NCBI GenBank assembly: GCA_963804645.1
Contig: CAWDRG010000005.1
Location: 160,001-224,000 of the forward strand
Source of the DNA: an uncultured Bacillota bacterium
GTDB taxonomy: Bacteria; Sysuimicrobiota; Sysuimicrobiia; Sysuimicrobiales; Segetimicrobiaceae
Direction of reading: 5' to 3'
Length of the DNA: 64,000 nt
Of this stretch, positions 31,213 through 36,820 are shown piece by piece. Position 1 is the stretch's first letter. The number at the start of each line of letters is the position of its first letter. A program made the position numbers and the translations under genes. A model generated the notes under the pieces. That model did no database searches. It saw only the letters and a list, made by a program, of their open reading frames with translations, and had not been told where the DNA came from.

Positions 31213-32598
31213 AATCGCGCCACCTAAACTGTTACCGGGGATTGGATCGTCGCGCCAAAATAGGTGTTACCCAGCGACGCCCCTATCTTTCGACCCAGGA
31301 GACCCCGGTGACCCCCAAGGCCAAGCGCGAATACCTCGACGCGATCCGAGCTCGGTATGCCGCCGCGTCCCGCGCGGTGAAGTCGCAACTCCTGACCGAA
31401 GCCTGCGCCACCCTCGGCTATCACCGCAAGGCCGCCATTCGGGCGTTCGCCCGACCACCCCGCACCACCCCGCCGTGCCACCGGTCGGGACGCCCCTCGC
31501 CCTACGGGCCGCGGACCGTGACGCTGCTCATGCACATCTGGGAGGCGGCCGGGTATCCGTGGTCGGTGCGGCTCAAGGCCCTGCTGCCGCTGTGGCTCCC
31601 CTGGGCAAAGCGCCGGTTCACCATCTCGCCGACGGTGGAACGCGCGCTCCGCACCATCAGTCCCCGCACCATCGATCGCCGGCTGGGCCAGAAGAAACGC
31701 CACCTCAACCGCCGCCTCTACGGACGCACCAAACCCGGCACGCTCCTCAAGCATCACATCCCGGTCCGGACCGAACACTGGGCCGTCACCGAGCCCGGCT
31801 TCACGGAGATCGACCTGGTCTCGCACTCCGGCACGTCCGCCGCTGGCGAATTCCTCTACTCGCTCAATCTCACGGACATTCACACGGGCTGGATGGAAAC
31901 CCGTGCCGTGCTTGGCAAAGGTCAGCAAGCCGTCCGGGCGGCCATCGACGACATTCGCCCCGCCTTGCCCTTCGCCCTCCGCGGCATCGACTCCGACAAC
32001 GGCTCGGAGTTCATCAACGAGCATCTCTTCCAATATTGCGCGGCCCGCGATATTCAGTTCACTCGCGGCCGGCCCTACAAGAAAGACGACAACGCCCACA
32101 TCGAGCAGAAGAACTGGACCCACGTCCGCAAACTCCTCGGCTGGGACCGCTATGCGTCCCCGACGGCGCTCGCCGCCATCAACGCCCTCTACCGCCAGGA
32201 CCTGCGCTTGATGATGAATCTCTTCCAACCCTCCGTGAAACTGCAACGCACCAAACGCACGGGCTCGCGCCGGCGCCGGTTCTATGACGCCCCCCAAACG
32301 CCGCTCGACCGGCTGCTGACGTCCCAGGGTGCCACCACCGCACAGCTCAAGACGCTCCGCCGCCTCCGTGCCCGCCTCGACCCGTTCGCCCTCTCGGAAA
32401 GTATCGAGCGGCAGCTCCGCCACATCTACACTCTGATCCACCGCGGCCCCATTACTCCCACTCGTCACCCGCTTCCGCATCAGCGGTTCGAGATCCATCG
32501 CCGCCCGCCGCTCCCGCGCGTCGCCGCCGGACGCCGGTAACAGCAATATTGGCGTGACGATACCCCCCTTCGGTAACACTTACTTATGGCTTGACAGG
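31213..32598 (+). mobile_element. Insertion sequence, ISNCY-like (rve DDE), apparently intact
   Basis: Two ~23-bp repeats ending TGTTACC at left (31214, 31249) and two inverted at right (32536-32558, 32572-32595); GGATACG on both flanks (31206, 32599) as candidate target duplication; exact ends uncertain. Confidence 0.8.
31308..32540 (+). CDS. Transposase, integrase-core (DDE) domain
   Basis: AGGAG RBS; EIDLV, IDSDNGSEF, RPYKKDDNAHIEQKN, YDAPQTP. Confidence 0.93.
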   Translation: MTPKAKREYLDAIRARYAAASRAVKSQLLTEACATLGYHRKAAIRAFARPPRTTPPCHRSGRPSPYGPRTVTLLMHIWEAAGYPWSVRLKALLPLWLPWAKRRFTISPTVERALRTISPRTIDRRLGQKKRHLNRRLYGRTKPGTLLKHHIPVRTEHWAVTEPGFTEIDLVSHSGTSAAGEFLYSLNLTDIHTGWMETRAVLGKGQQAVRAAIDDIRPALPFALRGIDSDNGSEFINEHLFQYCAARDIQFTRGRPYKKDDNAHIEQKNWTHVRKLLGWDRYASPTALAAINALYRQDLRLMMNLFQPSVKLQRTKRTGSRRRRFYDAPQTPLDRLLTSQGATTAQLKTLRRLRARLDPFALSESIERQLRHIYTLIHRGPITPTRHPLPHQRFEIHRRPPLPRVAAGRR

Positions 32599-32778
32599 GG
32601 ATACGTGTTGCCTCAGTTGCCTCAACAGTCCTGGTCACCGAACGGGGGGGTGTTGGGTGGGTCGAGGAGTGGCGCGGTGGCCTTGCGGCTCCGTTTCCAC
32701 CCCCCGCCTCATCGAACCGGACATGCAGGTTGCCCGCATCCGGCTCCCCTGTCCACTTCGCACCAAGGGTTATGAGAC

Positions 32779-35700
32779 CTATCGCGCTGGGAGCGCTTTC
32801 GGGAGCCTGTACACATATCGGACGCCATAGTCGTCATACAGTCCGAGCGTGCCATAGATCCACTCCCTACTCCACCTCTTCCAGCCGAAGCCTGGTCGTT
32901 TTGCCGCCCTCGCCAAGTGGCGTCGCACTTTCTTCTCGACCCAAAACCGCAGATGTGTAAACTGCCGACTGGTGTTCCCGATGCGAAGTAGAGTAAGGAG
33001 TTGGCGCGCCGCGTAGCTCCGCCGTTAGGGGGTACAGCCTGTCCACCTCCATCGGTGGCTTGCAGCCTCCAGCCCTCGTCCCGGGCGACACACGTTTCCA
33101 ACCCCTCCTCATCGATCCGAGCATGACCTTTCCGGTCACTCGGCTCACCGACGTCCTTCACCGACGGTTTTCGCCCCGCTCGAACCGAACGCTTCCGACC
33201 AAGCGGAGCAACCCGACGCGGTTGCCGGACATGATGATGTACTTCATGCCGCGCCCGCGTCCATTCCGCCCGTGTCGTTTGGAGAGCAGCAACGCCATTC
33301 GTTCGACCGTATACCGGTCCAACTTGGCGAAGCAGCGCGTCGAGTTGCCGTACCGATAGTACTCGCGCCACCCCCCGAGAAAACGATTGAGGTCGCCCAC
33401 AACCGTGTGCGTGGGGACGTGGCGACGATTGCGCCCGGTGAGTTCCCGGATCCGAGAACGGCACCGGAGCACGGCTTTGGCACTCGGCCAGCACGCCGGA
33501 TAGCGAAAGCTCGGTCTACGCCGTGAGGGCACCATCTGATGATGGAAACCCAGAAAGTCATATCCCGCGCTCCCGCTTGCGACTCCAACGATCTGCGTCT
33601 TGGAGCCGGACAATGTCAGCCCCAGCTCTTCCAGGGTTGTTGCCAAAACCGCCTTCGCGGCTTCAGCCTTCTCCCGAGTTGAGCAGCAGATGCAAAGATC
33701 GTCACAGTAGCGAACGAGCACTCCCAACGGCTGGTGCTCCGTCATCCAAGCTCGGTCCAAATGATGTAGGACCACGTTAGCCAGGACTGGCGAGAGCGGC
33801 CCACCTTGTGGAGAGCCCTCCGTCGGGGTCGTCAGCGTACCGCTGTCGAGTATCCCGGCGGACAAGATGCACCGAATGAGCTCCACGACCTTCCGGTCGC
33901 TGATCCGCTCCCGGAGACACTCCAAGATGCGGCCATGCGCGAGTCGATCGAAGCAGCTCTCGATGTCGGCATCCACCACCCATGTCCTTCCTGCCCGAAT
34001 CGCCTCCCGCATTGCTTGCAATGCTTGGTGGGCGTCTCGCCGGGGCCGAAACCCGTACGAGCAGGGCAGAAAGTCCGCCTCGAAGATCGGTTCGATGACG
34101 ATCTTCAGCGCTTGCTGGACCACCCGGTCCCGCACATTCGCGATCCCGAGCGGCCGGAGCTTGTCCGGCTTGCCTGGTTTGGGAATCCAGACGCGCCGCA
34201 GCGGCTGCGGACGGTACGTCCCGTCGCGCAGGCTGGCCTCTAGGTCGTCAAGGAACACCTCTACACCGGCCGCCTCAATATCCGCGATGGTAATGGCATC
34301 GATTCCCGGTGCTCCCTGGTTAGCGCGCACCTCCAACCACGCGCGCCCGAGAACGTCCCTGCGATGGACCCGGTCATACAGCGCGTGGAAACGTCGATTC
34401 GGCGACTGCTTGGCCGCCCGGTACAGTTTGTGTTGAAGGGCTCGAACTTTATCGAGGGTGTTGTTGGGCCTCTCGGCCATGCACCAGTTCCTCCCTCTCC
34501 CACAAACGTGGACGAAGCAGGGGCCCTTCGCTCGGGCGGGTTATGTTGTCCCGCCGGTCGTCGCTAATATGGCCCCATCCGACGCCCTCCCGGCTCAGTG
34601 CGACTTCCCGTTTGGCGGTTATACGCACTGGCTGCTCCCGGATCGCAGACCCGGGGCCGGGGAGGGCCTCTCCAGTTCCCGTCACCACCGTCCGAACGTT
34701 CCGCGCCCCTTACGGCGGGGGGTTCTTCGGCGCTGCATTTCCAGGCTCTCCACGCCTTCCGTGGCCTTCGCCCTGGTATTCCGGGCTCGGCTCCCCCTTG
34801 GTCCCTTTCGGGCTGGTCTAACGCCGCGGCAGACTTCACGTCATGCTGCGGACCGCTCGGTTGCTACCTCCGTGAGGCTTCTGACGCTGGGCTTCGGCGT
34901 CAAGCGTTTCCCCCTGACGCCGCCAGCCTGCTACCAGGCTCCCTGGCGATTACCTGGACGGGACTTTCACCCGCTGGCGGTGACGAGCTTACGGGCTACG
35001 CGCTCAATCCTCCCGACACCACCTCCTTCCATCGCGCGTGCCCTCTGGACACGCAATAATTGAGCCATCCGGCGAGGATTGGATTGACCTCGCTGATGAC
35101 TTGCTGCACCGGCTGGGAGCGGTGTTGCCGAAAGACCTCTCGGAGCCGCTGCCGTACTTCAGTGCATTTGTGGCGCGTTGGTACTTGATGTGGGCGCCAC
35201 GCACCTCGATGACTCCGCACCCGGCGAAAGTCGAACCCGAGAAATGTAAACGCTTCCCTCCGCTCAAGATCCACCACGCGGCTCTTCTGCTCATTGACCT
35301 GGATACCGAGCTTCGCGATTTCCTCCCGAATCCGCCGGTTGATCGCCCGCGGTAGCCAATCGTGCCGTTGGTGCGCATCCACCAGGACCACCAGATCGTC
35401 AGCCCACCGCGCGTACGTCACGTTCGGGACCGTTCCCCGCCGTGTAGTTTGCCGCGCCTTCTCCAACATCTCATCGACTGGAGTCAGATAGATATTGGAG
35501 AGCAAGGGTGAGAGAGGGCCGCCTTGTGGAAGCCCTTGACGGCCCGTGGCCTGAAGAACCAGCTTCAGCAAATGCAGGATCGCGGGATCACTGACCCGCT
35601 TCGCGACCTGTGCCAGCAGTATGTGGTGCTGGACGTGGTCAAAATACGCGTGCAGGTCGAGATCGATCACCCGCGTATGGCGAAGTAGGATAGCCTCTGC

Positions 35701-36147
35701 AACGTGGGCCACGGCTTGATGCGCCGTACGTTTCGGGCGATACCCGTACGAACCGGGCTGAAAATCTGCCTCGAAGATCGGCTCGAGAATAAGTTTCAGC
35801 GCTCCTTGTACGACCCGATCCCGGATCGCGGGAATTTGGAGCACTCGCTCCCCGCCGCCCCGCTTGGGAATCGCGTGTTTGCGTGTTGCCAATGGGCGGT
35901 AGCCTCCGGAGACCAGTTCGTCCTGTAGGCGCGCCAGAAACGTCTCCACGCCGGCGGTCTCGATCGCTTCAAATGTGACGCCGTCGATGCCCGGCGCCCC
36001 ATCATTCGCCTTGGCCGCCATGTACGCTGCCTGGAGTGTCTCCAGTTTGCAGACGTGGACGTAGAGGCCCCAGAAGCGCCAAGCCTTGTCGGACTTCGCC
36101 TTGGCGTACAGCCTTCGTCTCAGGTCCTGCACCGTGATGGACGCCAT
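32779..36147 (-). CDS. ltrA: Group II intron RT/maturase A, join(36147..35055, 32987..32779), 433 aa after removal of inner intron
   Basis: GAPGIDG, IP.IRDRVVQ, SYGYRP, PQGGPLSPLL, YARWADD; spliced junction reads GWLNY-F-RIGNTSRQF; no endonuclease domain. Confidence 0.9.
32988..35054 (-). mobile_element. Group II intron B (inner member of twintron)
   Basis: 5' GCGTG at 35054; domain V GAGCCGAGTGACCGGAAAGGTCATGCTCGGATC at 33146-33114; 3' end TACTCTAC at 32988. Confidence 0.9.
33158..34480 (-). CDS. ltrA: Group II intron RT/maturase B
   Basis: RFHALYD, RPLGI, SYGFRP, PQGGPLSP, VRYCDD, FLGF, GW.EYYRYGNS; no endonuclease domain. Confidence 0.95.
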   Translation of the reverse strand: MAERPNNTLDKVRALQHKLYRAAKQSPNRRFHALYDRVHRRDVLGRAWLEVRANQGAPGIDAITIADIEAAGVEVFLDDLEASLRDGTYRPQPLRRVWIPKPGKPDKLRPLGIANVRDRVVQQALKIVIEPIFEADFLPCSYGFRPRRDAHQALQAMREAIRAGRTWVVDADIESCFDRLAHGRILECLRERISDRKVVELIRCILSAGILDSGTLTTPTEGSPQGGPLSPVLANVVLHHLDRAWMTEHQPLGVLVRYCDDLCICCSTREKAEAAKAVLATTLEELGLTLSGSKTQIVGVASGSAGYDFLGFHHQMVPSRRRPSFRYPACWPSAKAVLRCRSRIRELTGRNRRHVPTHTVVGDLNRFLGGWREYYRYGNSTRCFAKLDRYTVERMALLLSKRHGRNGRGRGMKYIIMSGNRVGLLRLVGSVRFERGENRR

Positions 36148-36820
36148 TGTCAGATCGTCCGTGCCTCCCCTCGAACTCGGGCCTGTGGACAGCAGGGCTC
36201 CTTTGCTCTCGCGGCATTACCCGCGTTCATCGCTCGTACGAGCCCCTCCGACTTCCTCTCACCGTCGGCGCGTTTCCCGGGTGTTGCCCGGTTATCGCGC
36301 CTACCCAGCTTCCGATGCTTTCCCATCGAGGTGAGGAGGATCTCTCCAGTTGCTGAACGCGTCCTGGTCACCATGCCGTCGCTAACCACCCCGCCGGACT
36401 GACGACAGCTTCTCTGCCAGATATGCTGTCCTCACATTGCCTTCGCCCTTTGAGGGAAGGCTCGGCGCTCCGGAGTCTTCATTCTCGAGGCCACCTCGCG
36501 TTCGCTTGCGCTACGGCCTGGTGACTCGCTCACCCTTCCACGAAGGGTTTTGTCGGCAGGCTTTAGGTAAGTCGGTCTCTCTCCTTCCCGCTGCCCAAGC
36601 TACGAGGGGTCTGGCTCTTCCCTCGACGGAACTGTCTCCCGCTGAACGCGTCCGCGTTCGTCTGGACGCACCCTCAAAATGGGTGTCACCGAGCGTCGGT
36701 GCGGTGCGCCCTTGCCGCGCGTGCGGCGTGGTCCCGGGAACGCGGGGAAGGGACAGAGGTGTTCGTCACTCCGGTCGCGGAAGTTCGAGGTCACGTCTGA
36801 TCCCTGGCGAGGCCGAGACC

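Follow-up and report, generated by a model that had tools for sequence, protein, structure and literature searches.

The DNA studied here (the window) is a stretch of 64,000 nt from an uncultured Bacillota bacterium (GTDB Sysuimicrobiota; Segetimicrobiaceae), assembly GCA_963804645.1, contig CAWDRG010000005.1, positions 160,001–224,000 of the forward strand. The source genome is referred to as G000, the window as G000:C5:160001-224000, and the other contigs of this genome as C15, C20 etc. The minus strand of the window carries two group II introns, an outer one (A) and an inner one (B). Domain I (D1–D4) was matched twice by Rfam, at 36644–36506 (101.6 bits) and 34976–34841 (106.1 bits; gathering threshold 49), and domains V/VI were also matched twice, at 33148–32988 (38.6 bits) and 32748–32652 (41.6 bits), with the inner match slightly below the gathering threshold of 40. 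On this strand the matches follow each other in nested order. Each intron has an open reading frame (ORF) for a reverse transcriptase (RT)/maturase between domains I–III and domain V, and both ORFs exceeded the cut-off of TIGR04416 (group II RT/maturase), with 326 bits for A and 378 bits for B. A preliminary description of this locus had reported two RT ORFs and two separate domain V/VI units on the minus strand, and these were recovered. Both introns have the hallmarks of group II introns, i.e. a domain V, a domain VI that folds with a bulged A at −7, and an RT/maturase ORF. The layout is a three-level nest, with intron B inside intron A and intron A inside the end of an insertion sequence (IS). 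Occupied and empty alleles are present at both nesting levels.

B lies inside the RT gene of A, as had been proposed, and its borders were set independently by a stand-alone copy (C15:457082-459152, 97.6% identity) with unrelated flanks. When 35055 is joined to 32987 by coordinates, the result is a frame of 433 codons followed by a TAG, with no internal stop. In exon 1 of the A gene the Pfam GIIM match breaks off at profile position 38 of 80, and it reaches position 77–78 in both uninterrupted homologs scanned. Homologs of A were taken from 101 searched genomes and a GTDB-wide scan. The 22 uninterrupted ones that reach the junction (a further locus, L054, ends before it) all read straight across it with the motif GW.NY-F, leaving one codon between the two exon matches. 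Exon 2 is 46% identical to the named g2 intron B.th.I3. The domain X motif and the 433 aa to the TAG at 32779, both given in the preliminary description, are thereby confirmed, also by the relatives without B that it had proposed to search. The ORF track was said to miss the 3' exon of A, and the same is true of the public protein collection, which contains only the unspliced 383-aa read-through product.

The arrangement is that of a twintron, where one complete intron lies inside another and its removal restores the outer one exactly. The comparisons support that B splits the maturase domain of A and that only exact splicing would restore the frame. Because B cuts domain X in both A copies of the source genome (2/2), any full-length A protein must come from B-spliced RNA, and the dependence of A on B splicing is firm at the protein level. 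The earlier claim that A depends on prior splicing of B holds to this extent. It does not extend to a fixed B-before-A order on each RNA molecule, which the position of B in the ORF loop (domain IV), outside the catalytic core of A, does not imply. Owing to this position, A might in principle be spliced while it still contains B, by protein made from a sister transcript.

The start of A (GTGCG) is the same in a second copy, where the flanks diverge, while its 3' end seemed to be one base short of the CCCTAC of the homologs. Empty sites were sought by running a pattern of the 5'-flank motif over 94 genomes of the order. This gave 23 places, of which two are occupied and 21 others are spread over 13 genomes. 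Of these 21, 20 (in 12 related genomes) read GAGG/CA and are IS ends, none reads GAGG/CC, and one is unrelated. Since the empty IS ends continue as GAGG/CA, the 3' border of A was placed at 32656 with a CC end, and the borders of A given earlier (36671 and 32656) stand. Two alternative 3' ends, one base shorter with AC or at 32652 as in the Rfam match, were rejected on the same 20 of 21 matches. A 26-nt likeness between the 3' flank and domain I of A was considered as a remnant of a third intron and turned out to be the outer repeat of the IS. The consensus for group II intron ends is given as GUGYG...AY (PMC4028801). A has GUGCG...CC, which is atypical compared to the AY consensus, and B has GCGUG...AC. 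These variants recur in relatives, and the borders are fixed by empty sites and other copies. CC ends thus are seen in both lineages, in A itself and in L096 and L097 among the relatives of B, and the branch A keeps its place at −7 in these introns.

The exon-binding sites (EBS1, EBS2 and EBS3) of B were predicted by analogy, by aligning seven B-type 5' regions. EBS1 has AAUA opposite TATT in the source genome and AGUA opposite TACT in G004, a genome of the same genus, and in L096. EBS2 has CCA opposite TGG at −13 to −11 in five of six tabulated sites and, judged by eye, in the X9 contig. For EBS3 an A lies opposite T, and in L096 a U lies opposite A. The bases they pair with encode Trp and Tyr in the domain X motif W-x-x-Y-F/Y, and the predicted guides covary with these target codons, as in pairing between EBS and intron-binding sites (IBS). 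L096 (75% aa identity to B) is found at the same motif in a different intron ORF, and the 3' flank of another copy, L095, is the domain X of a third intron. The domain X motif accounts for four of the seven distinct 5' flanks of close B relatives (the two copies here, G004 and L096). A pattern search identified two other intron ORFs with the motif in the source genome; both are empty and both are mismatched to the B guides (the C20 intron gene at −2, the gene of B itself at −2 and +1). Across the genome, the +1 base is C at all 10 empty sites of the form GGN-TGG-N6-TATT-Y. The motif was not located by pattern search in four other RT types of the source genome, and two pattern scans of viral contigs gave no hits. 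An automatic 5'-end finder called seven ends among 80 metagenome loci and missed two known ones, and hence no frequency of domain X nesting is given.

In a second full twintron (C15:384636-388650; A 94%, B 95.6% identity) B interrupts A at the same base, and both ORFs are open. This copy lies in a different IS end, and the 5' flanks share only ~20 nt. In G004, B (93.5%) occupies this same position in an A homolog with no more than 84% identity. The synonymous divergence (dS) between the A hosts of the source genome and G004 is 0.52 (0.38–0.68), compared to 0.19 (0.14–0.24) for B. B therefore entered separately in G004, corresponding to at least two homing events. Furthermore, a 512-nt contig from DNA run X5 skips 2285 nt with 218 nt in between, i.e. 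it represents A minus exactly the 2067 nt of B, with 2/165 and 16/125 mismatches in the aligned bases. A B-free A allele thus exists in the DNA.

An assembler could have joined two repeated introns, as B is multi-copy, L095 demonstrates that B can become joined to unrelated flanks by recombination or misassembly, and the A/B border is unbridged among the contigs listed from the four sequencing runs examined (2 RNA and 2 DNA of 24 listed). With two diverged copies that have their own flanks, the same junction in the genome of another species, exact restoration of the frame and pairing of guide and target, we regard the chance of such an artefact as negligible.

A is inserted in the right end of an IS481-like rve element, where its target is the inner repeat; the site lies 41 nt inward from the conserved CAACA of the tip. 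EBS1 of A pairs at 7/7 and 6/7 positions with the flanks of the two copies, and across A-type introns the sequence of the EBS1 loop varies along with the flank. The right IS end is the only one in which A was seen (2/2 copies), and 20 IS ends are empty. A single position, empty sites and matching EBS1 are also the features of RmInt2-type homing to IS ends. The transposase of the host IS scored 44.5 bits against the IS481 cut-off of 224 and thus failed the family model, which is why only "IS481-like rve element" is used here. Upstream of the second A copy, at a distance of ~100 nt, there is an intact transposase with the same orientation, which could supply transcription. In the window copy only ~57 nt of the IS is left upstream and the upstream transposase is gone. 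No sigma-70-like promoter was found upstream of this copy (0 found, 0.9 expected), which is not informative. Among more distant A relatives, 10 of the 14 examined are inserted in domain V of other introns.

Table 1. Features of the twintron locus and related elements in the source genome (window positions unless a contig is given).
Feature	Position	Strand	Evidence
A 5' exon, remnant of IS481-like (rve) IS right end	36672..36726	-	96% over 57 nt to empty G004 IS end (L185)
IBS1 of A	last 7 nt of 36672..36726	-	7/7 pairing with A EBS1
Outer intron A, 5' part (domains I–III, start of IV)	35055..36671	-	GTGCG start; Rfam RF02003 36644-36506
EBS1 of A	36449..36455	-	Alignment of 10 A-type introns; varies with the 5' exon of each intron
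A RT/maturase exon 1, codons 1–364 + one base	35055..36147	-	RVT_1, GIIM positions 3–38 of 80; WADD at RT5
Inner intron B, complete, 2067 nt	32988..35054	-	Borders common to C15:386252-388318, C15:457082-459152 and G004; Rfam
EBS2 of B (predicted); CCA pairs with Trp codon at −13..−11	34813..34817	-	Alignment, pairing table; placed by analogy
EBS1 loop of B (predicted); first 4 nt pair with Tyr codon + one base	34774..34780	-	AAUA/TATT here, AGUA/TACT in G004 and L096
EBS3 of B (predicted; A, pairs with +1 T)	34710..34710	-	U opposite +1 A in L096
B RT/maturase gene, 440 aa, YCDD	33158..34480	-	RVT_1 + GIIM only
Domains V + VI of B, bulged A at −7, AC end	32988..33148	-	Rfam RF00029; fold z −2.7
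A gene exon 2 (rest of domain X, C-terminus, to TAG)	32779..32987	-	50–69% identity to matching end of uninterrupted homologs
Domains V + VI of A, bulged A at −7, CC end	32656..32752	-	Rfam RF00029; fold z −3.1; empty sites
A 3' exon: remaining IS end incl. outer repeat	32604..32655	-	82–88% identity with empty IS ends across ~40 nt
Transposase (432 aa) of a separate, adjacent rve-type IS	31242..32540	+	Pfam rve, under the cut-off (E 2.7e-6)
Other group II RT types / B-related fragments in G000	C5:303-312 kb, C2, C10, C11, C15:191 kb, C20, C9:703 kb, C22		

The locus is probably best explained by nested site-specific homing, based on its anatomy, the borders, the covariation of guides and targets, the independent entry in G004 and the B-free allele in DNA. 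A would retrohome into the inner repeat of the IS481-like right end by 7-bp EBS1 pairing. The guides of the B lineage would read domain X codons (EBS2 the TGG, EBS1 TAY-T and EBS3 the next base), allowing B to home into intron genes, both A-type and other, and at times into DNA that merely looks like the target. After transcription, B might be spliced by its own protein, which would restore the A frame, and the full-length A protein could then splice A. The released A RNA would lack B, so that A may spread B-free and be re-invaded by B. An endonuclease domain was not found in either protein (Pfam: RVT_1 and GIIM only), and priming at replication forks would therefore be expected, following what is described for such introns (PMC4424553).

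Several observations weigh against nested homing. Three of the seven distinct 5' flanks of close B relatives (B3, i.e. the stand-alone copy C15:457082-459152 or L002, together with L097 and the X9 contig) lie outside intron genes, so B is no strict specialist, and distant B relatives (~50% aa) use other targets. EBS1 of B pairs at only 4/7 positions at the domain X sites and EBS2 at 3/5; as this pairing is short, protein recognition would have to add specificity. A has no clear EBS2 pairing, an atypical CC end and WADD in RT5 instead of YADD/FADD. The host intron in G004 is 5'-truncated and has single-base insertions. RNA reads across the joins had been suggested as a check, and no spliced junction was present in the two RNA runs (23 and 8 contigs; low cover, contigs only). 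An RNA contig that ends exactly at 35054 was discounted as evidence of splicing, because branching flanks explain it. Finally, the dS of the two source-genome copies is nearly the same for A (A1/A2, 0.18; 0.14–0.23) and B (B1/B2, 0.16; 0.12–0.21), which fits joint movement as well as separate homing.

These overlapping dS intervals are what would be seen if the twintron moved as one unit, with A retrohoming as a 4-kb composite that carries B in domain IV. There would then have been one original B insertion in the genome, and the full-length A protein would be supplied by a B-spliced sister transcript. Both A copies contain B and the source assembly has no free A, in line with such movement, and composite retromobility is named as a possibility by Mohr et al. 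(PMC2882425). On the other hand, the 5' RNA of B differs by 1% between the two copies, while that of A differs by 6%. Moreover, B3 and L095 each combine stretches of B1 and B2 in a mosaic (runs test, P 0.003). B copies therefore recombine and the divergence of B is no clock. Group II intron proteins usually act in cis, which also speaks against the composite route, as do the separate entry in G004 and the B-free allele. We find single-unit movement rather unlikely, and B would have entered the two source-genome copies separately.

A could also be dead or barely active at present and serve B as a safe landing site; that the frame is restored would then merely record the insertion of B. The CC end, WADD and poor EBS2 pairing of A would fit this, as would the broken host in G004, the lack of junctions in the RNA contigs, and a window copy with neither an upstream transposase nor a promoter match (0 vs 0.9 expected). 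However, the CC end is also found in the B relatives L096 and L097, and the two CC-ended copies of A lie in different IS ends; as these share only the short stretch upstream, A most likely homed after gaining its CC end. Both A frames are furthermore open. The dN (nonsynonymous divergence) of A1/A2 is 0.030 and dN/dS ~0.16, and for B1/B2 dN is 0.016 and dN/dS ~0.10, so both ORFs have evolved under purifying selection. An inactive A is consequently quite improbable in our view. Both introns had been described as looking intact. This is less certain for A in view of its 3' end, RT5 and EBS2, and for the window copy in particular with its lost transposase and lack of a promoter match.

A wider proposal would make B a cross-class parasite of group II maturase genes, with a guide that tracks the synonymous Tyr codon of the host and misses its own gene, where A and B also move together as one 4-kb retroelement between IS ends by means of A protein from B-spliced sister transcripts. 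This is speculative and, taken as a whole, doubtful. If true, it would be evidence from nature that a composite twintron can retrohome and that one intron can gate the enzyme supply of another. With its pair of A+B copies, the genome offers a ready test of whether movement of the twintron occurs as a unit or in two steps.

The ORF of A is 49% identical to that of B.th.I3 of pBMB67 (group g2) over 363 aa and 37–38% identical to one g1 and one g3 reference. Our tree contained no g2 reference, left classes D, E and g4 unsampled, and did not resolve the intron classes, so A is described as nearest to group g2 ("g2-like"). FADD in RT5 is reported for ORF group g2 (Toro and Martinez-Abarca, 2013; PMC3552965) and was found in the three close A relatives in the tree, unlike the WADD of A. 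B is 51% identical to Rh.sp.I1 of pRHL1, which is unclassified, and membership of group g1 was ruled out (36% to Rh.js.I1). Both introns have other targets than these nearest named relatives (PMC3552965). The B lineage comprises at least 100 protein clusters at E 1e-150 or better, most with at least 70% identity.

Bacterial twintrons are known, as the preliminary description stated (PMC4424553; PMC4649490). The closest parallel to B is a set of introns that home into the YADD motif of RT genes of other introns, namely M.a.I5 (Methanosarcina acetivorans), UA.I3 and P.l.I2, with 58–67% nucleotide identity to each other; B.th.I3 of B. thuringiensis israelensis is grouped with them (PMC2504315). 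As described there, these introns resemble B in being endonuclease-less, in recurring in RT genes of other introns and thus forming twintrons, and in having target conservation confined to the IBS motifs. Their target is different, since B is inserted after residue 364 of A, at W-x-x-Y-F/Y in domain X, ~110 codons further on than YADD. B works like the YADD group and is not a member of it, being set apart by target and not by sequence comparison.

In Thermosynechococcus elongatus (TeI3 in TeI4) the inner intron is likewise found at one site in several diverged outer introns, which is read as independent homing, and the outer protein can arise after inner splicing, as here (PMC2882425). The inner introns in that account are ORF-less and identical and lie between two start codons, which gives protein without splicing, whereas B has its own enzyme and halves domain X. 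The Trichodesmium introns T.e.I7 and T.e.I8 both bear ORFs, as do A and B, and sequential splicing was demonstrated by RT-PCR (PMC4649490). There the inner intron is located close to the 5' end of its host intron's RNA, and the twintron lies in a host gene, as opposed to the outer ORF and the IS end here. RmInt2, found in the ISRm17 inverted repeats of Sinorhizobium meliloti GR4, is endonuclease-less and homes to an IS end like A (PMC4615759). It differs from A in intron group and IS, and A was seen only in the right end, in the inner repeat.

While the principle of nesting is already known, the domain X target is different from the published cases in the literature searched, where no case of domain X homing was found (subscription papers and the Zimmerly database were outside this search). 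Domain X codons would be another landing strategy for introns within introns, beside YADD and the start-codon site. Two intron pipelines state that twintrons are missed or excluded (PMC8919778; PMC4028801), and gene callers give the truncated 383-aa product, so twintrons of this kind are probably more numerous than the counts suggest. There is no evident effect on host genes. Beyond what had been proposed for this locus, the present analysis adds the repeated invasion of the domain X motif by B and the homing of A into IS ends.

Some further observations concern the relatives of A and B. A-type (g2-like) introns with EBS1 pairing at 7/7 positions were found inserted into the domain V of another group II intron in L039–L049 and L053 (metagenome-assembled genomes of Alphaproteobacteria), L048 and L205, the last on a Bradyrhizobium plasmid. 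The closest free A homolog, L060 (G014:C148, 1-80 + 3' flank), has 76% nt identity and a frameshift in its ORF near residue 250. It seems to be inserted into a different repeated IS-like end, 2 nt away from its tip, and has a matching EBS1; the flank is presumably of an IS type. In G004 (L059, G004:C18) the host intron lacks its 5' half, and the upstream DNA resembles, as judged by eye, the end of a recombinase gene. In L095 the 5' flank of B3 is joined to the 3' part of the third intron, by recombination or misassembly. L097, a 75% relative of B, interrupts an ORF with an HIH motif that we presume to be relaxase-like. The B relatives L200, L201 and L202 on Streptomyces plasmids (~51% aa) share one flank motif, and in L201 an annotated IS1380 transposase follows, which may be another IS-end target. 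The source genome also contains group II RTs of at least four other types, and two more 5' fragments that are related to B.

Next to the twintron, the right end of the neighbouring rve-type IS abuts the 3' exon of A. Its 432-aa transposase scored far under the cut-off of the NCBIfam IS481 model, and related copies are present on five other contigs. Within the outer repeat of the IS end, 9 nt are duplicated at window positions 32604–32620, and the right end of this second rve-type IS follows directly.

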